Assembly (NCBI GenBank): GCA_043824255.1
Contig: JBDRTG010000047.1
Location: forward strand, 99,528 to 163,527
Direction of reading: 5' to 3'
DNA from: a bacterium
GTDB taxonomy: Bacteria > JAHJDO01
Length of the DNA stretch: 64,000 nt
Shown here in pieces: positions 1,204 to 49,093 of the stretch; positions within the stretch are counted from its first letter, which is position 1, and each line of letters starts with the position of its first letter. The position numbers were made by a program, and so were the translations under genes. The notes below the pieces were generated by a model. It saw nothing but the letters and a program-made list of their open reading frames with translations. It ran no database searches and was not told where the DNA came from.

Positions 1204-2910
1204 TTACTCAGACGTTACGCGCAAAACTTCTTCTATGGTAGTCGTGCCCTTTTTAATTAGATCTATACCGCTTTCCTGCAATGTTCTCATTCCGCCTTTT
1301 ACAGCAGCTTCCTTAATCTCACCTGAAGTGGCCTTGTTCATAATTAGTTGCTTGATCTCATCATCTATCTTTAGTATTTCAACAACAGCAACTCTGCCTT
1401 TGTATCCAGTGTCATTACAAAGCTCGCAGCCCTTTCCTTTATATATTGTTAAATCTGATATTTTGGAAATTGGCTGTTGCAGAACATGGGCAAAATTCTC
1501 TTTTGCCTTTTCCTGCAGATCAATTTTTTCTTTGCAGTTTTCGCATATTTTTCGCATGAGTCTCTGCGCAGCCACCATTATTACGGAAGATGAGAGAAGA
1601 AACGGCTCAATCCCCATATCTATCAACCTTGTAATTGCTCCGGGAGCATCATTGGTGTGCAAAGTGCTGAAGACCAAATGACCTGTCAGAGCGGATTTTA
1701 TCGCAATATCAGCAGTTTCAAAATCCCTTATCTCTCCAACCATTATAATATCAGGATCCTGCCTTAATATAGATCGTAAGCCGCCGGCAAATGTCAGACC
1801 TATATCTGAGTGAGCTTGCACCTGATTGATTCCCTTTAGCTGATATTCTACAGGATCCTCAACTGTAATAATATTCTTAGTTGGTGTATTTATTTTGCTT
1901 AACGCAGAATAAAGCGTTGTGGTTTTACCACTACCTGTCGGTCCGGTTAGAAGGATCATTCCATGCGGTCTGGAAATAGATTCTGTAAATATTTCCAGCT
2001 CTTTTTCTCCAAATCCTAATTTCTCCAGATTCAGTGTTAAACTGCTCTTATCCAGAATACGCAATACCACCTTTTCCCCAAAAATTATTGGCAGAATTGA
2101 TACGCGAAAGTCTATTTCCTTATTATTCAATACAATCCTCATACGACCATCCTGCGGAAGCCTTCGCTCTGCTATATCCAGATTGGACATAATCTTTATT
2201 CTGGAGATTAGCGCAGCCTGAAGTTTTTTAGGTGGAGACAACCTCTCGTAAAGAACACCGTCAATGCGATAGCGGATGCGCAATGCCTTATCCTCCGGTT
2301 CAATATGAATATCGCTTGCTTTCTCCTTAATTGCCTGAGCGAGAATAAAATTAACCATTTTTACAACTGGAGCTTCCTCAGTTTCCCTTAAGAGTTTTTC
2401 TAAATCTAGTTCTTCCCTTTTCTCAGCAGGTTCCTTAATATCAATGTCCCTTAAAATCTCTTTCATATCAAAAGATACTTCATAATACTGGTCAATAGCA
2501 TTGAGAATATCCTTTTCTGTGGCTATTACAGGATCTATCTCGTATCCGGTAGTGCTTTTTAAATCGTCTGTAGCAAACACATTAAGAGGATCCAGCATGG
2601 CAATCGTAAGGGTTTTTCCTATCTTAGAGATTGGAATAATGGAATACTTTTTGGCAATTGTCTTCGGTATTGTTTCTATAACCTCTTTTGAAATTTTAAA
2701 TTTTGAAAGATTTATCGGAGGGATATTTAGTTGCTCGCTTAAGCACGCCATAAGGGTCTTCTCAGTAGCAAAGCCTTTTTTATAAATAATCCGGCTTAAA
2801 CTGCCCCCTTTTTCCCTTTGCTCTTGGAGTGCCTCTTTTAACTGTTCCTCTGTAATTATTCCTCCATCAAGCAGAATTCTTGACAGGGTGTCCTTTAAAG
2901 ACATAATCAT
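1204..2910 (-). CDS. pilB: Type IV pilus assembly / type II secretion ATPase (GspE/PilB family) with an N-terminal MshEN-like (T2SSE_N) domain
   Basis: 568 aa. It carries a Walker A motif (GPTGSGKTTTLYSAL), Asp/His boxes and a tetracysteine zinc motif (CENC...CELC). The N-terminus (LSRILLDGGIITEEQLKEALQEQ) matches the MshEN c-di-GMP-binding motif pattern. Confidence 0.9.
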   Translation of the reverse strand: MIMSLKDTLSRILLDGGIITEEQLKEALQEQREKGGSLSRIIYKKGFATEKTLMACLSEQLNIPPINLSKFKISKEVIETIPKTIAKKYSIIPISKIGKTLTIAMLDPLNVFATDDLKSTTGYEIDPVIATEKDILNAIDQYYEVSFDMKEILRDIDIKEPAEKREELDLEKLLRETEEAPVVKMVNFILAQAIKEKASDIHIEPEDKALRIRYRIDGVLYERLSPPKKLQAALISRIKIMSNLDIAERRLPQDGRMRIVLNNKEIDFRVSILPIIFGEKVVLRILDKSSLTLNLEKLGFGEKELEIFTESISRPHGMILLTGPTGSGKTTTLYSALSKINTPTKNIITVEDPVEYQLKGINQVQAHSDIGLTFAGGLRSILRQDPDIIMVGEIRDFETADIAIKSALTGHLVFSTLHTNDAPGAITRLIDMGIEPFLLSSSVIMVAAQRLMRKICENCKEKIDLQEKAKENFAHVLQQPISKISDLTIYKGKGCELCNDTGYKGRVAVVEILKIDDEIKQLIMNKATSGEIKEAAVKGGMRTLQESGIDLIKKGTTTIEEVLRVTSE

Positions 2911-3440
2911 AATTTTTCTTTATTTTCCTTTTCTCTCACTAACTGCTTAAAGTCAACATCTGTCATATATTCTTCTGTGGTTCTGGTGATTTTCTTACGC
3001 TTCCCTGGGCCAAAATAACGAGTAATAATATCTTCAATATCCTCTCCCCCACTGACAAAGATTCTCACACTGGAGTTAGTGGCAATCTTTACATCCTCAA
3101 TTGCAGCATCGTTTAGCGGGTCAGCCATGGCTAATACTATGATATTATCCATTTTATCTATAGGAATTAGGTGATAATGCCTTATGATTGATTCCGGAAT
3201 TAACTTGAGTATATCCTGATCAATCTCATAGTTTTTCAAAGGGAGATATGGGAATCCAAACTGAGAAGTAAGGGCGTTAACCACCTGTTCCTCAGTCGCA
3301 GATCCCAGGCTGACTAAAATCTGACCCAGAAAACCACCCTTTAGCTCCTGAATTTTCAATGCTTCATCCAGTTGTCGTTCCGTAATAACATCTCTCTCTA
3401 TAAGTATCTTTCCGAGTCGTTTTCTAATAGTTCTTGACAT
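2907..3440 (-). CDS. Stand-alone T2SSE_N / MshEN-type domain protein, a predicted c-di-GMP binder
   Basis: 177 aa. It has two tandem motifs, RLGKILIERDVITERQLDEALKIQ and LGQILVSLGSATEEQVVNALTSQ, that resemble the 24-aa MshEN c-di-GMP motif. Its stop overlaps the pilB start by 4 bp. Confidence 0.6.
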   Translation of the reverse strand: MSRTIRKRLGKILIERDVITERQLDEALKIQELKGGFLGQILVSLGSATEEQVVNALTSQFGFPYLPLKNYEIDQDILKLIPESIIRHYHLIPIDKMDNIIVLAMADPLNDAAIEDVKIATNSSVRIFVSGGEDIEDIITRYFGPGKRKKITRTTEEYMTDVDFKQLVREKENKEKL

Positions 3441-3444
3441 AGTA

Positions 3445-4368
3445 TTATCCCGGAAACATAATCACTTTGTTCCCTTTTCCTTTCTTAGCCTGTTCCATTG
3501 CGCGATATAATTTATTATTTAATTCTTCTGCAACGTCGCCATCAATGGGGTTGGCAACTATACCTGCGCTTACAGTAATCTTTGTATCTTTTATTACACT
3601 TTTTGCATCTGGGATAGATTCATTGGCAACCGCTTTTCTTACTTTTTCAGCAAGAGCATAAGCTTCCTTTTTATTGATCTCAGGGAGAATAATGCAGAAT
3701 ATGGTATCCTTGCAACGAGCTACCTTGTCAATATCTCTTGCATTCTCCTTCAGGATACCTGCAATCTTCTTTATAACCTTATTCTTAATATTTCCGCCAA
3801 GTTTTTTCAAATATACATCCAGATTGTCAACATCAAACCCAATTATAGAACATGGACGCTCATACATAGCTGCCCGTTTCAACTCTTCGTTCAAATATTC
3901 TTCGTAATATTTCAAGTTATATAAGCCCGTTAATTTGTCTGTAATGGTTAAGGAATTGGTTTTTTCAAGCAATCTATTGATTTCATAGCTGAGACCGCTT
4001 ATTTTTGCCTCAGTTTGATAAAGATCAGACATATCCCCTCTAAGCTTTTTTGTAATTTTATCCAATGAGACGCTTAATTCGTCCATTCCCACTTCTTTTA
4101 ATTCCGGATCATCTGCTATTTTAGCTTTTGCCATCATCTTCACTATATTTGTATTAATTTTTTTAATCAGAAACATTAAGAACGCTATAACACCAAGCAG
4201 AATAGCTATGCTGACATAAAGCACAACCTGATCCCATGATAATGCGTATGTGCCTAAAAAAACAAATGCTCCTATCAATATCAGCATAATAATTACAAGA
4301 GCAATGTTTATAAAAATATTACGATGGGCATGTGCCTTTGTTATCGACATATCTTCGCTTCTCTTCAT
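3445..4368 (-). CDS. Membrane-anchored GGDEF-domain protein with a degenerate active site (KDTIF in place of GGDEF) and an intact RxxD I-site. It is predicted to be a c-di-GMP receptor rather than a cyclase.
   Basis: Two N-terminal TM helices are present. The GGDEF-fold landmarks are LTGLYNLKYY, FDVDNLDVY, the ARDIDKVARCKDTIF block aligned to RxxD...R-Y-GGEEF, ITVSAGIV and LYRAMEQAKKGKGNKV. Confidence 0.7.
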   Translation of the reverse strand: MKRSEDMSITKAHAHRNIFINIALVIIMLILIGAFVFLGTYALSWDQVVLYVSIAILLGVIAFLMFLIKKINTNIVKMMAKAKIADDPELKEVGMDELSVSLDKITKKLRGDMSDLYQTEAKISGLSYEINRLLEKTNSLTITDKLTGLYNLKYYEEYLNEELKRAAMYERPCSIIGFDVDNLDVYLKKLGGNIKNKVIKKIAGILKENARDIDKVARCKDTIFCIILPEINKKEAYALAEKVRKAVANESIPDAKSVIKDTKITVSAGIVANPIDGDVAEELNNKLYRAMEQAKKGKGNKVIMFPG

Positions 4369-4383
4369 AGTGATAGCTCCTTA

Positions 4384-5781
4384 TTATCTTGATATTTTAT
4401 CAATATTCAGATTTATATCAGTCCCTTTCCATATTTTTGTCGGTAGTTTTTTATCAGGATTTGTTTTTCCCCAGGTTTCATCCATTTGCTTAACCCTTGC
4501 TTTTTCCTCTTCAGTCAATTCAGTCTCCTCTGTTACAATAGTAGGAGTGATCAGAACAATTAATTCCATTCTTGTCTTAGTGGTGGTGTTCTTTTTGAAA
4601 AGATATCCAAGTAATGGAATATCTCCGAGTATGGGTACCTTATACACAGTAACGGTGTTATAATTTCGCCTGAGCCCGCCAACTATAACCATACGGCCAT
4701 CCTTGGTCAATAGATTCGTCTCTAATGAGCGAGAGTCTATTATGGGTTCGGAACTATATTCACCTACTGAAAAACTATGTTTTGGCTTAACAAGCATGGA
4801 GACAAACCCGTCACTTGTTATGTGGGGCTTTACAGTAAGATATGTTCCCACCTCTTTAAAGTCAATTGTTGTCATCACTGTTCCATCGGGATTAGTTGTA
4901 ATTTTTGTATATGGAATACTCTCTGTTATTTCTATATTCGCTTCCTGATTATCAAGAACTAAGAGCCTGGGTCGGGCAAGTATTTCCACATCTGCGTTAT
5001 ATCTTAACCATTGAAGAGTCGCTTCAATATCCCACAGACCGACACCGAAGCCGGTAATGGCATGCTGGAGACCTGTAGTCAGAGACTGCCCAAACATGCC
5101 CTCAGTCACTGCTGTTCCGAGTTTCGCTGTCCCAGTTTTTGTAAAATTCCAGTCAATACCGTACTTGGTCTGTCCTGTTATTTTTACATCTACAATAGCT
5201 GCTTCAATAAGAACCTGAGGAGTTTTAACATCCAGTCTCTGCGCAATTTCTGCTATTTGGTCAATATTCTCCTGAATATCAGTAACTATCAGGGTATTTG
5301 TGCGTGAATCGCTCTCAATTTTCCCTCTTGATGAAAGCATTTTTGTAACTGATTTCTGGAGCTTTTCAACGTCTGCAAAATTTAGAGAGAAAATTCTTGT
5401 TACTAACTCTGCCTCTGCCTTTGTAGTCTCCTTAATGGCAAGCTGTTCCCCCTTTATTTTTTTCATCTTCTCTGCAGTCATAACCTTTATCAAATTTCCC
5501 TCTCGCTCGTAAGCATACCCGCTGACATCAAGAATTGTCTGTAACGCTTGTTCCCAACCTACATTTTGAAGAAGAAGCGAAACTGTTCCTCTCACTTCTT
5601 CTCCGGCAACTATATTGACGTTACCCTTATGGGAAAGCATTCTTATAACATTGCGTATATCAGCGTCTTTAAGGTCTAATGTGATCTTTTCGCCTTCCAG
5701 CTGATTACCCGCATATGAGACAGAACTAAAAACCAGACCAACACACATTGCAAGTACTAGAAAAACATGTAATTTCCTCAT
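4384..5781 (-). CDS. pilQ: Type IV pilus secretin PilQ (GspD family)
   Basis: It has a signal peptide and N0-like domains. The C-terminal secretin signature is VYKVPILGDIPLLGYLFKKNTTTKTRMELIVLITPTIV. Confidence 0.9.
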   Translation of the reverse strand: MRKLHVFLVLAMCVGLVFSSVSYAGNQLEGEKITLDLKDADIRNVIRMLSHKGNVNIVAGEEVRGTVSLLLQNVGWEQALQTILDVSGYAYEREGNLIKVMTAEKMKKIKGEQLAIKETTKAEAELVTRIFSLNFADVEKLQKSVTKMLSSRGKIESDSRTNTLIVTDIQENIDQIAEIAQRLDVKTPQVLIEAAIVDVKITGQTKYGIDWNFTKTGTAKLGTAVTEGMFGQSLTTGLQHAITGFGVGLWDIEATLQWLRYNADVEILARPRLLVLDNQEANIEITESIPYTKITTNPDGTVMTTIDFKEVGTYLTVKPHITSDGFVSMLVKPKHSFSVGEYSSEPIIDSRSLETNLLTKDGRMVIVGGLRRNYNTVTVYKVPILGDIPLLGYLFKKNTTTKTRMELIVLITPTIVTEETELTEEEKARVKQMDETWGKTNPDKKLPTKIWKGTDINLNIDKISR

Positions 5782-17389: not shown

Positions 17390-17480
17390 CGGAGAGGGAG
17401 GGATTCGAACCCCCGGTCCCGAAAAATCAGGACAACAGATTTCGAGTCTGCCGCTTTCAACCGGACTCAGCCACCTCTCC
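17390..17480 (-). tRNA. tRNA-Ser (anticodon CGA) with a long variable arm
   Basis: The reverse complement is GGAGAGGTGGCTGAGTCCGGTTGAAAGCGGCAGACTCGAAATCTGTTG...GGGGTTCGAATCCCTCCCTCTCCG, which folds as a cloverleaf. Confidence 0.8.
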
Positions 17481-27234: not shown

Positions 27235-28592
27235 ATTGGATAATTCATATACTCCCATTTATTGTTGTAATAAGTATTCTGGTTTTCGTACATGAACTGG
27301 GACATTTTCTTGTAGCTAAATGGCTTGGCATTAAAGTGGAAAAATTCTCTCTGGGATTTGGCCCTAAGCTTGTTGGCTTTAAGAAAGGAGATACGGAATA
27401 TTTGATCTCTGCTGTGCCTTTGGGAGGATATGTAAAACTTGCAGGAGAATCCAGCGAAGAAAAAACAGGCGCTGACTGGGAGTTCTATTCTAAGGGGCCT
27501 TTTCAGAGAATCCTTGTAATACTTGCAGGCCCTTTTATGAATATACTGCTGGCAATTTTTGTCTTCTCTTGTATCTTCTTTACAGGAATAGAACTACCCT
27601 ATTTTGAGGCTAAAATCGGAGAAATAGCCAAAGATTCGCCTGGTTCCAAAGCTGACCTGAAAGTGGGAGATACAATATTGAAAGCCAATGGCAAACAAAT
27701 CAAAGATTGGAGTAAGTTTAAACATATTATCCTGACTCATCCAAATCATACAATATCTATACTCATTGACAGAAACGGAGAAAGAAAAAGCATTCAGGTC
27801 AAAACAGAGTTCAACAAAGAAAAAGGAGGCGGGTACTTGGGAGTTTCCCCATTCATTCCCCCTGTAATAGGAATTGTTGAGCCTGAAAGTCCTGCATACA
27901 AAGCCGGTATTAGAAAAGGAGATGTTGTTCTATTTATTAATGGCAAACAAATGTCCTCGTGGAATGATATGGCAAAGAGTATTCATAACAGTGCAGGAGA
28001 GAAAATCTCACTCATAATAATGCGTGAGAAGGAGCAGTTGGAAATAAGTGTTGTGCCTAAACTTAACAAAACACTAAACATTGGTCTCATAGGAATAATT
28101 CCTGAATTTAAGACAATAACGCGTAAATATGGACCAATCGGTGCATTTGTTCAAGGATGCAATCAAACCGTAAACTTGACAGTTCTTACATATAGATCCA
28201 TATGGATGCTTATAAAGAGGGAAATATCTACTAAAACACTTGGCGGCCCAATAATGATTGCACAGCTTGCAGATAAGCAGGCAAAAGAAGGACTTATGAA
28301 CCTGTTTTACCTGCTTGCTCTGATAAGTGTAAACCTTGCCATACTTAATTTACTTCCGATTCCTGTACTGGATGGGGGGCATATACTTTTCTTTCTAATA
28401 GAAGCTATAAAAGGCAGTCCGATTAGTGAGAAAGGGCTTGAATGGGCAACAAAATTTGGCATTGCGCTTCTTTTAACTTTAATGGTATACGTAACATTTA
28501 ATGATATTATGAGAGTTGCAAAAGATAAAATCAATATCTTCCATGGAAAAAATACCTCACAAAATAATCAATCCTCCACTCAAACGCCGTAA
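27207..28592 (+). CDS. rseP: Site-2 zinc metalloprotease RseP with PDZ domains
   Basis: HELGHFLVAKW (HExxH), PDZ segments and the C-terminal LDGG motif are present. Confidence 0.85.
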   Translation: MGEENMFALNWIIHILPFIVVISILVFVHELGHFLVAKWLGIKVEKFSLGFGPKLVGFKKGDTEYLISAVPLGGYVKLAGESSEEKTGADWEFYSKGPFQRILVILAGPFMNILLAIFVFSCIFFTGIELPYFEAKIGEIAKDSPGSKADLKVGDTILKANGKQIKDWSKFKHIILTHPNHTISILIDRNGERKSIQVKTEFNKEKGGGYLGVSPFIPPVIGIVEPESPAYKAGIRKGDVVLFINGKQMSSWNDMAKSIHNSAGEKISLIIMREKEQLEISVVPKLNKTLNIGLIGIIPEFKTITRKYGPIGAFVQGCNQTVNLTVLTYRSIWMLIKREISTKTLGGPIMIAQLADKQAKEGLMNLFYLLALISVNLAILNLLPIPVLDGGHILFFLIEAIKGSPISEKGLEWATKFGIALLLTLMVYVTFNDIMRVAKDKINIFHGKNTSQNNQSSTQTP

Positions 28593-29634
28593 AACCAGAC
28601 CTATTAAAGTTGGAAACATTATAATAGGCGGAGATGCGCTGATATCTGTACAGTCTATGACAAAAACAGATACCAGAGATATTGATGCTACAGTTTCTCA
28701 AATAAGAAGTCTGGAGAAAACAGGCTGCGAAATTATAAGAGTGGCAGTCCCTGATATCAAAGCAGCAAAATGCTTGGGAAAAATAAAAAAACAGATTAAT
28801 ATCCCTCTTGTTGCAGATATACATTTTGACTACAAACTTGCATTGGAAGCAATAAAACAGGGTGTTGATAAATTAAGACTTAATCCGGGAAACATTTCCA
28901 GTCAAAAGCATCTTAGTATGATCATCTCTGCAGCAGCAGAAAAAGGCATACCAATCAGAATAGGTGTAAATGCAGGCTCGGTTAAGAAAAATTCAAAATT
29001 CAAAATTCAAAATTCAAAATTAATGGTAGAAGAGTGTCTTAAGTATCTAAAGATTTTTGAAAAGCATAAATTTCATAATATTATCATATCACTTAAATCT
29101 TCAGACGTACTCTCTACAGTGGAAGCTTACAGGCAAATGGCAAGTAAATGCGATTATCCGTTTCACCTTGGTATTACAGAGGCAGGTCCATTGCCTGAAG
29201 GGCTTATTAAATCCTCTGTTGGCCTGGGCATACTCCTCTCAGAAGGCATTGGAGATACTATCAGAGTCTCACTTACCGCACCTCCTGAAGAAGAAGTAAA
29301 AGCAGGCTTCCGGATATTACAATCACTAAAACTCAGAGAATATGGTCCGGAGATTATCTCCTGTCCGACCTGCGGCAGATGTAAAATTGATGTTATAAAA
29401 ATTGTAACTAAACTAAAAAAACAACTTATCTCTATTAGTTCAACATTGCCACCTATAAAAATTGCTGTCATGGGCTGCGAAGTAAATGGACCGGGTGAAG
29501 CCAAAGAAGCTGATATTGGAATTGCAGGAGGAAAAACCTCAGGAATTCTGTTCTGCAAAGGCAAAATAGTTAAAAGAGTCAAAAAAGAAAAGCTTGTTCA
29601 GGAACTGATAAGTAAAATCAGGAAATTATTGTAA
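28516..29634 (+). CDS. ispG: 4-hydroxy-3-methylbut-2-enyl diphosphate synthase (GcpE)
   Basis: IGGDALISVQSMTKTDTRD is the TIM-barrel N-terminus. CPTCGRC is the C-terminal Fe-S motif. Confidence 0.9.
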   Translation: MQKIKSISSMEKIPHKIINPPLKRRKTRPIKVGNIIIGGDALISVQSMTKTDTRDIDATVSQIRSLEKTGCEIIRVAVPDIKAAKCLGKIKKQINIPLVADIHFDYKLALEAIKQGVDKLRLNPGNISSQKHLSMIISAAAEKGIPIRIGVNAGSVKKNSKFKIQNSKLMVEECLKYLKIFEKHKFHNIIISLKSSDVLSTVEAYRQMASKCDYPFHLGITEAGPLPEGLIKSSVGLGILLSEGIGDTIRVSLTAPPEEEVKAGFRILQSLKLREYGPEIISCPTCGRCKIDVIKIVTKLKKQLISISSTLPPIKIAVMGCEVNGPGEAKEADIGIAGGKTSGILFCKGKIVKRVKKEKLVQELISKIRKLL

Positions 29635-29694
29635 GAGAAGCATCCCCAAAAATCACACATCAAATTATTGCGCAATCAATTCGGAGAATGACGA

Positions 29695-31260
29695 ATGAGG
29701 TCACTTCAGGATTTAGACAATTATCTAAGAAAATTTGCGTTGCATTCCGCTTTAATAGAAATCGGCAAAATTAGCACACATCTTTTTGGTGATAAAAAAG
29801 TTCTTGAAAATTTTCCAATCAAAATAGGGAATACAGAAGAACACGCGACCATTGCTCAGTGGCATCTTGCCTTTTTGGCATATAGGCTTGTTATGGTATC
29901 AAATGATGGAAGAAGTAGCCGACTCAATTCTAAGGAATTATTATCGGCAAACTCGATATTTGCTGAATTCGACGATCCACTTGGTAAAGAAAAAGATATT
30001 GTTGCATTTCTTTGCAGATTATCACAAGAACAATTTTGGTGGCAAGTAAATCGAAAATACAGTTTTGCTCGTAATTATATTTTACTGAAAGAAATCCCCA
30101 GAGATGACACTTTTAAAAATAGAATTAAATTGGATGAAGTTTTTCTTAAGGAATATGGTTTGTCTATTTACGATTACACGGCGATCGGTTGGGCAATAGT
30201 TACCATTTGCCGTAAAAACCCTTTCTTTAAAAAGAACAACTTACTATGTCATAGCATACCAGCCTACAAAGATATACTTACTGAAAATAAATTAGATAAA
30301 TTCCTAGCATTAACCTCAGCAACTTATGCTGACATCAGAGCTACTTCTAGGTCATTAAATACTTTAATTCTTCCACATTACGAAAAATATCAATTCAACC
30401 CTTTATTTAAATATCCTATTGTAGAGTCGGATAGTAGATTTTTAAGGTCGTATTTTCAAGAACCTTACATAGTACCCAATATATTACTGTTTTTAAAAAA
30501 AATTGCAGATGGAGTTTATTGGGATTTAAGAGATATATTTAAGGAAAAAGAGTCTCGAGAATTTCTTAGATTATTTGGGGATATTTTTGAGTGTTATGTG
30601 GGGAAAATACTTGCAAATTATTTTGGCCAATCTAATGTAAAAAAACTACCACAGAATATAGGGGAAAAAATTAAAATTGCGGATTGGGCTGTTATAACTG
30701 ATGATAGTATTACAATTTTTGAATGTAAGAGTCAATTATTGCCTCTTATTATCAGAGAGACCTTTAACGAACATAAATTAAGGGAATGGTTAAATCGAAA
30801 TATCATCTCAGGAATAGAACAGTTGTTTTCGACTGAAGAACAATTGCTCAAAGGAGACTCTCTGGGAATTAAGATAGCTAATAAAAAGATATATAAAATT
30901 TTAATTACATATGAAAATATTTATCTTATTGAATCTCCTATGTTTAAAGATAGGATAAAAAAATATGTGAAAGATAAAGGAATATTTGAACAATATTCAC
31001 ATAATTCTTCAGATTTCTATATTATGCATATATCCGAATTAGAATTTATGCAAAATTTTCTTAAAAAATTTACAATTAAGAATATTTTAGAGGAGAAAAA
31101 GCATATTGATACTAAAAGAGATATAGCATCGGGTCATGACTTTTTTACTGTTTGCCATAACTTAGATTCAAATATTAAACCCAGCAATGATTGGTTGCAT
31201 AATACTTTTAAAAAATATTTTGATAAATTTAATCTTAAAACAGAAGGTAAAAAGAGATAG
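29695..31260 (+). CDS. Hypothetical 521-aa protein with a C-terminal PD-(D/E)xK-like nuclease motif. It is a low-GC orphan.
   Basis: The segment KIADWAVITDDSITIFECKSQ has D...(D/E)xK spacing typical of restriction-endonuclease-fold catalytic cores. GC is visibly lower than in the flanks. No family was recognised for the N-terminal roughly 330 aa. Confidence 0.35.
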   Translation: MRSLQDLDNYLRKFALHSALIEIGKISTHLFGDKKVLENFPIKIGNTEEHATIAQWHLAFLAYRLVMVSNDGRSSRLNSKELLSANSIFAEFDDPLGKEKDIVAFLCRLSQEQFWWQVNRKYSFARNYILLKEIPRDDTFKNRIKLDEVFLKEYGLSIYDYTAIGWAIVTICRKNPFFKKNNLLCHSIPAYKDILTENKLDKFLALTSATYADIRATSRSLNTLILPHYEKYQFNPLFKYPIVESDSRFLRSYFQEPYIVPNILLFLKKIADGVYWDLRDIFKEKESREFLRLFGDIFECYVGKILANYFGQSNVKKLPQNIGEKIKIADWAVITDDSITIFECKSQLLPLIIRETFNEHKLREWLNRNIISGIEQLFSTEEQLLKGDSLGIKIANKKIYKILITYENIYLIESPMFKDRIKKYVKDKGIFEQYSHNSSDFYIMHISELEFMQNFLKKFTIKNILEEKKHIDTKRDIASGHDFFTVCHNLDSNIKPSNDWLHNTFKKYFDKFNLKTEGKKR

Positions 31261-31310
31261 CGACCTTTTCTTAAAAATCATGCTCTCACCAAATCTACAA
31301 TAACCACCAG

Positions 31311-32603
31311 CTAAAGCAGGCGGTTGCGACGGAGGGGACACAAAACTGATATAAGGGCTAAAAATCGCGAAAAAGAATCGGGTAAAAGCAAAACTATATA
31401 AATTGTTGCTATAATAGTTAATCCACCGAGAAACCCAAATGCTCCGGCAGGAGATAATCCAATCACTTCAAGAATTAACCACAACATTCCTGAAGCTGCT
31501 AAAATACCCGTGAAGGACAGGAAATTAGTTGTAGCCAGAAACTTACCTCTTGAATCTTTCGGGCTGTTTTCCTGAATATACGCATTGAGCGGAATAACAA
31601 AAAAACCGCTGGAGATACCAAGAAAAATAAGACAAATAACTGTGAATGGAATAGATGTATATGAAAATGCAAGAAGTATTGAAAAAATGCTTAATCCAAC
31701 TGAACCCAATGGTACAAATCCAAACTCAATCCTTCCTCTTGAGAGCTTTCCAGCAAGAAAACTGCCTATGCCCACGCCAAGAGCAACTACAGTGAGCAAT
31801 AATCCTGTTGCAAGCTGTGAAACATGCATCATCTTACTGGTATATAAGAGGATATTTAATTGAAATAAAGCTCCTAGAAACCAGAAATAGACTATGCCTG
31901 TCATAGAAAGATACATCGGGCGTTTTTCCTTTACAATCTTTATTGTGGACCAGATATCGCTAAGAAAATTTATTTGGAATTTTCGTTTTGAGCCAGATGG
32001 AAGAACCTTATGAATGTAAAAACTTGTTATTATTCCCAGTAATGAGATTATAATGAATGCAATTGACCCAAGATATGCTTTTCCTTTAACTGCTGTCATC
32101 AAAAATCCTCCGAATGCCATGCCGAGAATTATTGCCAGAAATGTCCACATCTGCATAAGCCCATTCCCTTCGGAGATTTCCTCCTCAGTAAGAACTTCCG
32201 GAAGAATTCCATATTTTGCAGGGCCGAAGAAAGCACTCTGTGTTCCCATCAGGAAAAGTACTGCATAAATAAAAGTAAAGTTTCCTGAGAACAGCGCAAT
32301 CATGCCCAGAGCCATAATGGCAAGCTCTGCAAATTTGGCATAAATCATAATGGTTCGTTTACTAACCCGGTCAGCAAAAAAGCCGGCATAGGAAGAGAAA
32401 AGCAGAAACGGCAGGATGAAAAATGCACTTGCTGCGCTTAGATACTCAGCTCCTGCAGCGCTCTTTATCATATGCTCTACTGCAATAAAGGATATTATCA
32501 GCTTAAATGCATTATCATTAAATGCACCCAGAAATTGTGTTGCAAGAAGAGCCCTAAATCCCCTGCTTTTCAGGTTATTATTCATAATTATAGAAAGTCT
32601 CAT
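31311..32603 (-). CDS. MFS transporter, lysophospholipid transporter LplT-like
   Basis: It has 12 TM segments. It is immediately downstream of an acyl-activating enzyme, so the pairing resembles lplT/aas. Confidence 0.6.
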   Translation of the reverse strand: MRLSIIMNNNLKSRGFRALLATQFLGAFNDNAFKLIISFIAVEHMIKSAAGAEYLSAASAFFILPFLLFSSYAGFFADRVSKRTIMIYAKFAELAIMALGMIALFSGNFTFIYAVLFLMGTQSAFFGPAKYGILPEVLTEEEISEGNGLMQMWTFLAIILGMAFGGFLMTAVKGKAYLGSIAFIIISLLGIITSFYIHKVLPSGSKRKFQINFLSDIWSTIKIVKEKRPMYLSMTGIVYFWFLGALFQLNILLYTSKMMHVSQLATGLLLTVVALGVGIGSFLAGKLSRGRIEFGFVPLGSVGLSIFSILLAFSYTSIPFTVICLIFLGISSGFFVIPLNAYIQENSPKDSRGKFLATTNFLSFTGILAASGMLWLILEVIGLSPAGAFGFLGGLTIIATIYIVLLLPDSFSRFLALISVLCPLRRNRLL

Positions 32604-39960: not shown

Positions 39961-40037
39961 TGGTCGGGGCGACTGGATTCGAACCAGCGACCTCTTGAAC
40001 CCCATTCAAGCGCGCTACCAAGCTGCGCCACGCCCCG
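39961..40037 (-). tRNA. tRNA-Pro (anticodon GGG)
   Basis: The reverse complement is CGGGGCGTGGCGCAGCTTGGTAGCGCGCTTGAATGGGGTTCAAGAGGTCGCTGGTTCGAATCCAGTCGCCCCGACCA, which folds as a cloverleaf. Confidence 0.8.
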
Positions 40038-44915: not shown

Positions 44916-45077
44916 ACCAAAATTCCTCCTTTTTTATCTATTAATATTATAGATTATATATAATTATATATAACATTGCATCATGATTTTTGTCAAGCCA
45001 CTGTTATGGCAAAATGGACAAAATAAATTGACTACGGATATATCTTATGATAGCCTTGCGTTAAAGAACTAAACAGT

Positions 45078-45160
45078 ACCGGGAGCGAGATTTGAACTCG
45101 CACAGGATTTCTCCCACTAGCCCCTCAAGCTAGCGTGTCTGCCAATTTCACCATCCCGGC
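45078..45160 (-). tRNA. tRNA-Leu (anticodon GAG)
   Basis: The reverse complement is GCCGGGATGGTGAAATTGGCAGACACGCTAGCTTGAGGGGCTAGTGGGAGAAATCCTGTGCGAGTTCAAATCTCGCTCCCGGTA. It has a long variable arm. Confidence 0.75.
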
Positions 45161-47037: not shown

Positions 47038-48615
47038 ATGCAAGATTTGATGACAATTAAAGATGCAAGCATATGGGCATCCAAACATATAAGCAAGGAT
47101 GTTACTCCATCAAATATATCTTATTTAATTCAATACGGCAGAATTTCTAAAAATGGAGATAATGGAAGTGCTTTTGTTAATAGGTATGATTTAGAAAAAT
47201 ATTACAAGTCGCATCTTGAAACTAAAGAAGATAGATGGAAGAAACAACTTGGAGATGATTTAAATTGGAAATTATCTTTTTCTGAATACAAAGAGTCAGA
47301 AACAACTAAACATGTTCATAGACTACATCCATACAAAGGTAAATTTATTCCGCAATTGGTGGAATATTTTTTAGATCGACACACAGATAAATTTAAAAAT
47401 GGAGTTTTTTTTAATCCAGGTGATATTATCTTAGATCCTTTTTGCGGCAGCGGAACAACTCTTGTCCAAGCAAATGAATTAGGCCTAAATTCTGTTGGAA
47501 TTGATATTTCAGCTTTTAACGCCTTTATAAGCAATGTTAAAGTTGGAAAATACGATATTGATGATATTAGAAATACAGCAAATGAAATCACACAAAATCT
47601 TAAGATATTTCTACAAGAGAAAAATAATGTTAAATTTGAAGATGAATTATTGAGTGAACTTAAAATATTTAATAATAAATTTTTCCCGTCCCCTGAATTT
47701 AAACACAAAGTAAGACAAAAAGTAATTGATGAAAAATTTTATGGAAAGCAAAAATCTGATGAATTTTCGGAAATTTATTATAAGCTCATTGAGAAATACA
47801 ATATTTCACTTAGGCAGAAACGTAATGATTTGTTTCTTGATAAATGGTTTTTAAAGGTTGTAATGGATGAAATCAATTTTGTTTTTCAACAAATAAAGCC
47901 AATTAAAAACTTAGAAACAAAAAAAATTCTTGCTCTTGTTTTGAGTCGCACAATTCGATCCTGCAGAGCAACTACACATTCAGATTTAGGCACTTTAAAA
48001 GAACCCGTGACGTCCACCTATTATTGCAAAAAACATGGAAAGATATGCAAACCGTTATTTTCTATTTTAAGTTGGTGGCAAAGTTACGTTCAAGATACTA
48101 TCAAAAGAATTAATCAATTTGACAAACTACGTACTAAAACCTTTCAAAACTGTTTAACAGGAGACAGTAGAACAATAAATGTTTTTGATGAATTAGAAAA
48201 AAAATATCCTGCATTTGGAAAATTAGCTAAAGAAAACAAAATAGCTGGAATATTTTCCAGTCCTCCCTATGTAGGGTTAATAGATTATCATGAACAACAT
48301 GCGTATTCGTACGATTTATTTGGATTTGAAAGAAAAGATGAATTAGAAATAGGTCCTTTATGCAAAGGACAAGGGTTAGAAGCGCGAAAATCTTATATCA
48401 AAGGTATTTCTGATGTTTTGAATAACTGTAAGCAATTTTTGAAACAAGGTTATGATGTGTTTTTGGTAGCAAATGATAAGTATGGTCTTTATTCACAAAT
48501 TGCTGAACTATCTAACATGAAAATTGTAAATGAGTATAAAAGACCTGTTTTGAATAGAGTTGAAAAAGACAGATCAGCTTATGCTGAAATAATATTTCAT
48601 ATGAAGGAAAAGTAA
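47038..48615 (+). CDS. Putative N4-cytosine/N6-adenine DNA methyltransferase with an N-terminal HTH-like region. It lies in a low-GC islet.
   Basis: DPFCGSGTT is motif I (FxGxG) and SSPPY is motif IV. A Cys-rich insert lies between them. Confidence 0.6.
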   Translation: MQDLMTIKDASIWASKHISKDVTPSNISYLIQYGRISKNGDNGSAFVNRYDLEKYYKSHLETKEDRWKKQLGDDLNWKLSFSEYKESETTKHVHRLHPYKGKFIPQLVEYFLDRHTDKFKNGVFFNPGDIILDPFCGSGTTLVQANELGLNSVGIDISAFNAFISNVKVGKYDIDDIRNTANEITQNLKIFLQEKNNVKFEDELLSELKIFNNKFFPSPEFKHKVRQKVIDEKFYGKQKSDEFSEIYYKLIEKYNISLRQKRNDLFLDKWFLKVVMDEINFVFQQIKPIKNLETKKILALVLSRTIRSCRATTHSDLGTLKEPVTSTYYCKKHGKICKPLFSILSWWQSYVQDTIKRINQFDKLRTKTFQNCLTGDSRTINVFDELEKKYPAFGKLAKENKIAGIFSSPPYVGLIDYHEQHAYSYDLFGFERKDELEIGPLCKGQGLEARKSYIKGISDVLNNCKQFLKQGYDVFLVANDKYGLYSQIAELSNMKIVNEYKRPVLNRVEKDRSAYAEIIFHMKEK

Positions 48616-48616
48616 A

Positions 48617-49093
48617 ATGGCATTATCAAACAATCAAAAGCAAAAAATAGAAGAAGAAATAAAGGAAGTTTTAAAAGCGACAGCAGAAAATGGCGAATTC
48701 CAAAAATCAGGAAACATTGCAGATTTCTATATGAAACGAAATGGGCAGGAATACTATTTTGAGATCAAAACAGTAAAGCCAAATATTGATGTGTTTGAAA
48801 AAAGTAAAACAAAATTATTGGAATGGGTTGCCAGAAAAAGAATGCCTATCAAGGTATACCTTGCATTTCCTTATAATCCATATCATCCAAAACCATATCA
48901 TCGTTTTACGGAAGTTGGAATGATGGATTCACAAAATGATTTTTTAGTTGGCAACGAATATTGGGATTTTATCGGTGGGGAAAACACCTTTCCTGAATTA
49001 TTAAAAACATTTGATGTAGTAGGAAAAAATTTCAAAGAACAATTGAATAAAAAATTTAAACAAATAGCAAAAGAAAAGTTGGATTCCTATTAA
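48617..49093 (+). CDS. Small hypothetical protein with a PD-(D/E)xK-like motif, a candidate cognate restriction endonuclease
   Basis: It is 158 aa. It has IADFYMKRNGQEYYFEIKTVK, with D followed 13 residues later by ExK. It starts 1 bp after the methyltransferase stop. Confidence 0.4.
   Translation: MALSNNQKQKIEEEIKEVLKATAENGEFQKSGNIADFYMKRNGQEYYFEIKTVKPNIDVFEKSKTKLLEWVARKRMPIKVYLAFPYNPYHPKPYHRFTEVGMMDSQNDFLVGNEYWDFIGGENTFPELLKTFDVVGKNFKEQLNKKFKQIAKEKLDSY

Follow-up and report, generated by a model that had tools for sequence, protein, structure and literature searches.

The GapS1 (GAPS1) superfamily is composed of single-polypeptide anti-phage nucleases, and a divergent, new member is probably encoded in the stretch of bacterial DNA analyzed here. 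This stretch, the window, is 64,000 nucleotides of contig JBDRTG010000047.1 (assembly GCA_043824255.1). The gene lies between ispG and a convergent transporter gene, and is likely to be accessory cargo that was acquired horizontally. Homology to GapS1 across most of the protein, a modeled nuclease fold, and absence of the gene from a closely related locus carry this assignment. The kind of system is already known; it is the family member that is new. By analogy with GAPS1, we infer the anti-phage function, trigger, substrate, and growth-arrest outcome of the window protein.

29695..31260, plus strand: GapS1-like coding sequence, 521 amino acids, stop codon included (open reading frame (ORF) listing, ATG start)
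29683..29686, plus strand: putative ribosome-binding site GGAG, 9 nucleotides 5' of the ATG (direct sequence reading)

The start codon sits at the aligned start of the homologs in a 16-member alignment. An earlier description of the locus (the sequence-only reading) had placed a 521-amino-acid ORF at 29695-31260 between same-strand ispG and a convergent gene pair, and the coordinates and Pfam matches agree with it.

In the paper that describes it, GAPS1 consists of one polypeptide whose C-terminal domain is of the PD-(D/E)xK type (bioRxiv 10.1101/2023.03.28.534373). In the same text, D313A and K328A substitutions abolish defense against phage T7. T7 escapes through mutations in its capsid protein, Gp10, and phages engineered to carry I217T or V247A escape as well. 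Expression of Gp10 stops the growth of GAPS1-bearing cells while viability is kept, a dormancy outcome. E. coli homologs that are 24-29% identical to Vibrio GAPS1 also defend (bioRxiv 10.1101/2023.03.28.534373).

The sole NCBIfam match of the window protein is NF047931, "antiphage_GapS1" (107.6 bits), which spans residues 96-465 and positions 80-435 of the 455-position profile. The discoverers of GAPS1 used RPS-BLAST with a PSI-BLAST position-specific scoring matrix, at E ≤ 1e-15 and a coverage of at least 70%. With the NCBIfam hidden Markov model as a stand-in for that matrix, the window protein is matched at E = 7e-31 over 78% of the profile, values that would lie within those thresholds. 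Single-protein searches of Pfam, PHROGs, PADLOC, and PDB sequences return no match for it. Neither Pfam nor PADLOC 2.0 has a GapS1 family model.

The canonical comparator is an ORF of ~500 amino acids from a Klebsiella P2-like prophage, found by tblastn against phage records. It scores 429 bits with the full GapS1 model, where the cutoff is 320 bits, and a RefSeq E. coli gene 99.9% identical to it is annotated "gapS1: GapS1 family protein". BLASTP aligns the window protein with this canonical GapS1 over 378 amino acids (residues 95-461; E = 6e-14, 21% identity). Aligned by hhalign, a profile of 63 family members matches it with 99.3% probability over 385 columns (query 53-464 vs. 53-457). Because this alignment spans residues 53-464, the homology takes in the N-terminal region as well as the C-terminal nuclease, which is the architecture of GAPS1.

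The window protein and GAPS1 are alike as single polypeptides of ~450-520 amino acids that are homologous over residues 53-464. Both have a D-x12-(D/E)-x-K motif, in which the Asp and Lys that GAPS1 mutants show to be essential line up, and both are accessory cargo of mobile regions, often with an adjoining integrase. The window protein differs in its low identity and in its clade, which is rare, comprises 17 clusters, and stems from uncultured bacteria. Its gene is a lone insert among core genes and not part of a GMT island or prophage.

In Klebsiella phage Kp4845-2 (OK490395.1, L009), a P2-like (Peduoviridae) prophage, canonical gapS1 occupies 2684-5230 at the prophage end, immediately behind the integrase. 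The Kp4845-2 record has no annotation. Identical gapS1 genes are present in 12 Klebsiella phage records and 15 E. coli chromosomes, and some RefSeq records still label canonical gapS1 "hypothetical protein".

The window protein is made up of two parts.

29695..30549, plus strand: N-terminal family-specific domain, residues 1-285 (AlphaFold model, conservation)
30556..31104, plus strand: PD-(D/E)xK nuclease core, about residues 288-470 (domain model, Foldseek, PDB profile search)
30682..30729, plus strand: catalytic motif D330-x12-E343-x-K345, DWAVITDDSITIFECK (translation, conservation)

The C-terminal domain is securely assigned to the PD-(D/E)xK nucleases because its modeled fold, Foldseek, and a profile match to Can2 agree. 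The full-length AlphaFold model has a mean predicted local distance difference test score (pLDDT) of 85.2 and a predicted TM-score (pTM) of 0.86; the model of residues 286-521 has a pLDDT of 87.8. From residue 288, the predicted core opens with a helix (FGDIFECYVG). Three beta strands, which bear D330 and E343-x-K345, come next, and then a long helix with more beta-alpha units after it. This layout is the alpha-beta-beta-beta-alpha-beta core of the superfamily, with Asp on strand 2 and (D/E)-x-K on strand 3. The sequence-only reading had pointed to such a core from a C-terminal string, KIADWAVITDDSITIFECK, which is present in the translation, and the HHpred/Foldseek-type check that it proposed bears the core out. 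The spacing it gave, D-x13-E-x-K, is off by one residue.

In 16 clade members that align end to end, D330, E343, C344, and K345 never vary. In a diverse set of 63 members, D330 is likewise invariant, and the conservation of E343 and K345 is at least 90%. The exact D-x12-E-x-K pattern is present in 147 of 164 fetched family proteins. In the BLASTP alignment, D330, E343, and K345 pair with D315, D328, and K330 of canonical GapS1. D330 and K345 are 15 residues apart, as are D313 and K328 of Vibrio GAPS1, a comparison by spacing and not by alignment. The conserved Asp and Lys of the GAPS1 active site therefore appear to be retained.

When the domain-only model is searched against PDB with Foldseek, seven matches are obtained at E ≤ 1e-3. 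All are the catalytic domain of the nickase N.BspD6I (probability 1.00, E values from 9e-5 to 5e-4). Weaker matches include the R.BspD6I small subunit, Cdn1, the R2 restriction-like endonuclease, Card1, Hjc, McrC, RecU, and Can2. The full-length model has weak matches only, with Upx at the top and the rest mostly PD-(D/E)xK nucleases. A viral structure library gives no significant match. Searched against PDB sequences, the family profile matches Can2 (7bdv, E = 1.7e-4) and a DUF1887 protein (8bao, E = 2.8e-3).

Since the best structural matches are a Type IIS-related nickase and the R.BspD6I small subunit, the protein could be a solitary restriction-type endonuclease, Type IV or nicking. Its N-terminal domain would read foreign DNA directly, with no phage-protein trigger. 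As with Type IV enzymes, no methyltransferase adjoins the gene. Some homologs adjoin type I restriction-modification genes or an Mrr-like nuclease, a highly conserved N-terminal domain would suit a nucleic-acid-binding module, and the target of GAPS1 is unknown. The structural matches are, however, weak (TM 0.33-0.39) and confined to the generic catalytic core, and the N-terminal domain has no detectable likeness to known DNA-recognition domains in Pfam or Foldseek. The homology to GapS1 is also nearly full length, and the capsid escape mutants and capsid-induced arrest of GAPS1 suggest protein sensing. A restriction-type enzyme is therefore unlikely, and membership in the GapS1 superfamily is preferred.

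Can2, Card1, and DUF1887 proteins share with the window core a G-x-FE-x-YV helix, the catalytic Asp, and an ECK strand, all of which align. The likeness is limited to ~70-90 core residues. The window protein has no CARF domain or link to cyclic oligoadenylate, and its N-terminal domain is unrelated. By analogy, an enzyme with a core of the Can2/Card1 type might nick DNA or cleave single strands.

Upx is a single-protein defense system that is activated by a phage protein (PMC13099982; PDB 9wuf). It is the top Foldseek match of the full-length model (E = 2.2e-4, probability 1.00, 556 columns), and in it, too, a D...E-x-K core at the C-terminus comes after an extensive helical region. Upx is much larger, at 1,272 amino acids, and has a middle domain besides its two PD-(D/E)xK nuclease domains. 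The TM-score is 0.33, and Upx falls outside the top 50 of the search with the nuclease domain only. No PADLOC model matches the window protein at the sequence level. The resemblance, which comes from a structural model, is a lead only. The N-terminal and C-terminal domains of Upx, at 515 and 558 amino acids, both come close in length to a GapS1-like protein, and Upx might be built from GapS1-like modules.

Shedu (SduA) is also a single-protein defense nuclease with a C-terminal PD-(D/E)xK-type domain, and the sequence-only reading had likened the window protein to it. Shedu is noted for variable N-terminal domains, and PADLOC 2.0 contains Shedu models. Membership was rejected, as Pfam and PADLOC each return zero Shedu matches at E ≤ 10. 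The family is instead GapS1, and the GapS1-like proteins differ from Shedu in having an N-terminal domain that is conserved family-wide.

The N-terminal domain (residues 1-285) is predicted to be mostly helical, with one beta-hairpin at residues 37-54. No recognizable domain had been reported here in roughly 330 residues. The first part stands, as no Pfam or PDB family is matched; the length does not, as the core begins near residue 288 and leaves ~285 residues. Foldseek returns no significant structural neighbor for the domain, the weak Upx match aside. The description of this domain as variable is contradicted by its conservation. In the close clade, residues 53-285 hold 2.83 bits of information per column vs. 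2.65 for the core (286-460). Over 63 members with pairwise identities below 35%, the values are 1.48 vs. 1.55 bits. Throughout this set, R126 and P241 never vary, and Q113, N235, and L237 are nearly invariant. The domain is presumed to be the sensor or regulatory part.

A close relative lacks the gene at this locus.

28516..29634, plus strand: ispG, upstream flank (Pfam GcpE, E = 4e-145)
31311..32603, minus strand: lplT-like major facilitator superfamily (MFS) transporter, convergent downstream flank (Pfam MFS_1, NCBIfam LplT-type matches)
29620..31343, no strand: insert of 1,724 bp, 30.9% guanine plus cytosine (GC), in place of 158 unrelated bp in the relative (DNA comparison)

A species-representative genome collection was scanned with IspG, and metagenomes were scanned for a close relative. 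No IspG more than 58% identical is present in the genome collection, and the source lineage is poorly sampled. The metagenome scan gave one close relative, L090, with an IspG that is 90% identical. In L090, ispG is followed by 32 bp and then the convergent lplT, with no gene between, so the window gene is accessory and not conserved at the locus. DNA homology between the two ends at window position 29619 and resumes at 31344, with flanks that are 92-94% identical. The check for presence/absence polymorphism proposed with the sequence-only reading thus came out positive.

The insert contains a single gene, and its other frames have no open stretch longer than 73 codons. No conserved partner gene accompanies the homologs. 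The breakpoints lie within both flanking 3' ends, and the insert supplies the last codons of ispG and of the lplT-like gene. After ...ELISKI, the IspG tail is 10 residues in the window (...ELISKIRKLL, then stop) vs. 31 in L090; the Pfam GcpE domain is complete in both. The last 10 residues of the lplT-like protein also differ. The 158-bp spacer (L090 1749-1906) was considered as a deletion scar and rejected, as it shares just chance 8-9-mers with the insert and holds no gene remnant. No integrase or transposase flanks the insert. A search for a target-site duplication or terminal inverted repeats yielded one 8-bp match, at chance level.

Another reading is a housekeeping nuclease of DNA repair or recombination in this lineage, such as a resolvase or a RecB-like enzyme. 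The PD-(D/E)xK fold is common to Hjc, RecU, and similar enzymes. The gene has core genes around it, and it may share a transcript with ispG, as no terminator is predicted on either side of it. Its absence from this locus in L090 largely refutes the housekeeping reading, which is extremely improbable. Close homologs are few and their contexts all different, the gene is low in GC, and no housekeeping family is matched in Pfam or NCBIfam, where the sequence-only reading had looked for its own refutation.

The 3' end of the insert contains a short element with a second copy elsewhere.

31244..31332, no strand: 92-bp element, made up of the gene end, the 50-bp spacer, and the lplT tail codons (blastn, E ~1e-16 to 1e-18)

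The element is 82% identical, in the same orientation, to 1995-2086 of L002, the contig that carries P0002, a homolog 88% identical to the window protein. The L002 copy lies upstream of this homolog, reads as a short lplT-tail remnant, and is followed by a perfect hairpin with an 11-bp stem. On the minus strand it encodes a tail ending in ...VLCLEPLVPRRNRLL before the stop, which resembles the window LplT tail (...VLCPLRRNRLL, then stop), itself different from that of L090. The element is present in a single copy in the window, and none was found in viral contigs or after other L002 genes. An integron attC site was considered and rejected, as there is no significant fold (z = +0.7 and -1.3) and no Rfam family. 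The element may be an att-like footprint. As a weak hypothesis, the insert would be the decayed remnant of an integrative element that targeted the lplT 3' end and carried a replacement tail. The gene orders of the window and L002 are not related by a simple permutation, and no further evidence backs the idea of an integrative element.

A selfish or addiction nuclease of a mobile element, homing-type or toxin, could account for the insertion of a single gene by its own activity. The insert is clean, with no recombinase and no flanking repeats, and gives both flanking genes new tails. A copy of the lplT tail is on a mobile-looking contig with the 88% homolog, and several homologs adjoin integrases. 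At 521 amino acids, with a large conserved domain outside the nuclease, the protein is unlike homing endonucleases, and no antitoxin-sized partner ORF is present in the insert. Family members are cargo in many unrelated contexts with no common target site, and GAPS1 homologs have demonstrated defense phenotypes. A selfish nuclease is very improbable, and a GapS1-like defense protein remains the preferred reading.

A joint proposal, which we consider quite improbable, makes two separate claims. The first is that the ispG-lplT junction is a hotspot for an undescribed small defense-gene cassette. Such a cassette may carry a replacement lplT 3' end, the 92-bp element, and move single defense genes without a recombinase of its own. 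The second is that the N-terminal domain is a second catalytic or ligand-binding module, as the invariant R126 and P241, the nearly invariant Q113 and N235, and a conservation like that of the core may indicate. If the second claim is true, GapS1-like proteins would resemble one half of the dual-nuclease Upx.

The composition of the gene sets it apart from its neighbors. Its GC content is 0.298, the second lowest of the 52 window genes; the other 51 average 0.375 (sd 0.032), which gives z = -2.43. GC at third codon positions gives z = -1.68. Low GC had been reported from the sequence and is borne out; of the proposed composition check, the GC deviation holds, and synonymous codon usage is no outlier among the window genes. 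The ratio of nonsynonymous to synonymous substitution rates (dN/dS) is 0.23 against the 88% homolog and 0.13 against a 61% homolog, for which dS is near saturation. These ratios indicate that the ORF is real, functional, and under purifying selection.

The gene had been called an orphan, which does not hold. A word-indexed search of 5.8 billion clusters recovered 17 close homologs, all from metagenomes or metagenome-assembled genomes. Second and third word-indexed searches, with profiles, recovered the same 17 proteins and no named relatives. Looked up by exact sequence, the window protein itself has no recorded contig. An exhaustive profile search gave 2,915 cluster representatives (E ≤ 1e-3), of which 253 reach E ≤ 1e-30, and most matches are full length. 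Ten members taken down the ranking score 25-102 bits with the GapS1 model, all under the cutoff, and match no other full-length family. Distant relatives are on plasmids of Pseudomonas, Streptomyces, cyanobacteria, and others, where nearly all are labeled "hypothetical protein", including both of the RefSeq plasmid copies examined.

The contexts of the homologs all differ, and defense or mobile-element genes are near most.

P0007: phage-type integrase, two genes before the homolog
P0005: immediately preceded by an integrase and followed by type I restriction-modification HsdM/HsdS
P0006: adjoins an Mrr_cat/NA-iREase1 protein
P0165: a 1,620-amino-acid helicase-nuclease and a HicB antitoxin nearby, with a further gene inserted in one variant
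P0002 (88% identical): shares its contig with a Bro-N-Fic protein, a trypsin-like protease, and a fragment of a RecD/UvrD-like helicase

The extra gene near P0165 encodes a 676-amino-acid WG_beta_rep/zinc-ribbon protein between the GapS1-like gene and the HicB antitoxin (L174 11749-13779, compared with L175 and L176). Because of this gene, the neighborhood is taken to be a variable region. Some distant members of the family have a SEC-C/SWIM-type metal-binding motif, at the C-terminus of P0101 (residues 566-588) and near the N-terminus of P0055 (residues 15-26). No SEC-C/SWIM-bearing variant is described in the available text of the GAPS1 paper (bioRxiv 10.1101/2023.03.28.534373).

Fold, GapS1 homology, and presence/absence polymorphism together favor an accessory, single-gene, defense-type nuclease with a C-terminal PD-(D/E)xK core, as the sequence-only reading had suggested. 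Several points weigh against placing it with GapS1 in function as well as in descent. The NF047931 score is far under the curated 320-bit cutoff, and the NCBI annotation is therefore "hypothetical". Identity to canonical GapS1 is just 21%, and function could have diverged. The N-terminal domain is conserved like the core, which is unexpected for a surface that tracks phage capsids. The GAPS1 nuclease target is unknown, as said above, and no later mechanistic paper on GAPS1 was found in the literature. Housekeeping genes adjoin the gene with no surrounding defense island in the window, where the only other defense-type genes are ~16 kb away. PADLOC 2.0, a check proposed at the outset, was run and has no match to the protein; this silence is uninformative because PADLOC 2.0 also misses canonical GapS1.

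The remaining features concern the neighborhood. The gap between the end of ispG and the GapS1-like ORF, both on the plus strand, is 60 bp. Downstream, after 50 bp, lies the convergent pair, the MFS transporter and an AMP-binding enzyme. The labels lplT and aas are reasonable yet under curated cutoffs (158 bits vs. 297 for LplT). In NCBIfam, the lplT-like protein best matches the transporter portion of LplT-Aas fusion enzymes (E = 9e-110). Promoter-like sites near the GapS1-like gene are not above shuffled expectation.

17390-17480, minus strand: tRNA gene (Rfam)
39964-40037, minus strand: tRNA gene (Rfam)
45077-45160, minus strand: tRNA gene (Rfam)

Because none of the three tRNA genes adjoins the insert, tRNA-targeted integration does not explain it. 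A second low-GC pair (0.29-0.30), a type II restriction-modification pair, is located at 47038-49093. Its methyltransferase has 525 amino acids and is full length relative to the PADLOC model MTase_II. The TdeIII-type endonuclease ORF begins 1 nucleotide past the methylase stop, and its 158 amino acids cover only positions 105-242 of the 242-position profile, the C-terminal half. The endonuclease may be truncated, leaving the methylase an orphan.

A mechanism can be proposed by analogy with GAPS1. A conserved N-terminal domain, largely helical and ~285 amino acids long, precedes a putative metal-dependent nuclease with the active site D330/E343/K345. In uninfected cells, the nuclease would be held inactive by auto-inhibition. 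A phage protein made during infection, which for GAPS1 with T7 is the major capsid protein, would activate it. The activated nuclease would then cut nucleic acid, growth would stop, and phage multiplication would be blocked. The insert that carries the gene is possibly left over from an element whose integration site was the 3' end of lplT.

Placed in this family, the window protein would extend the GapS1 single-protein defense family into a deeply branching, uncultured bacterial lineage. At ~2,900 clusters at 50% identity, the family is far bigger than current annotation recognizes. The clean presence/absence of one gene between two near-identical loci makes it a compact experimental candidate. 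The conserved N-terminal domain may offer a handle on how GapS1-type proteins sense infection.

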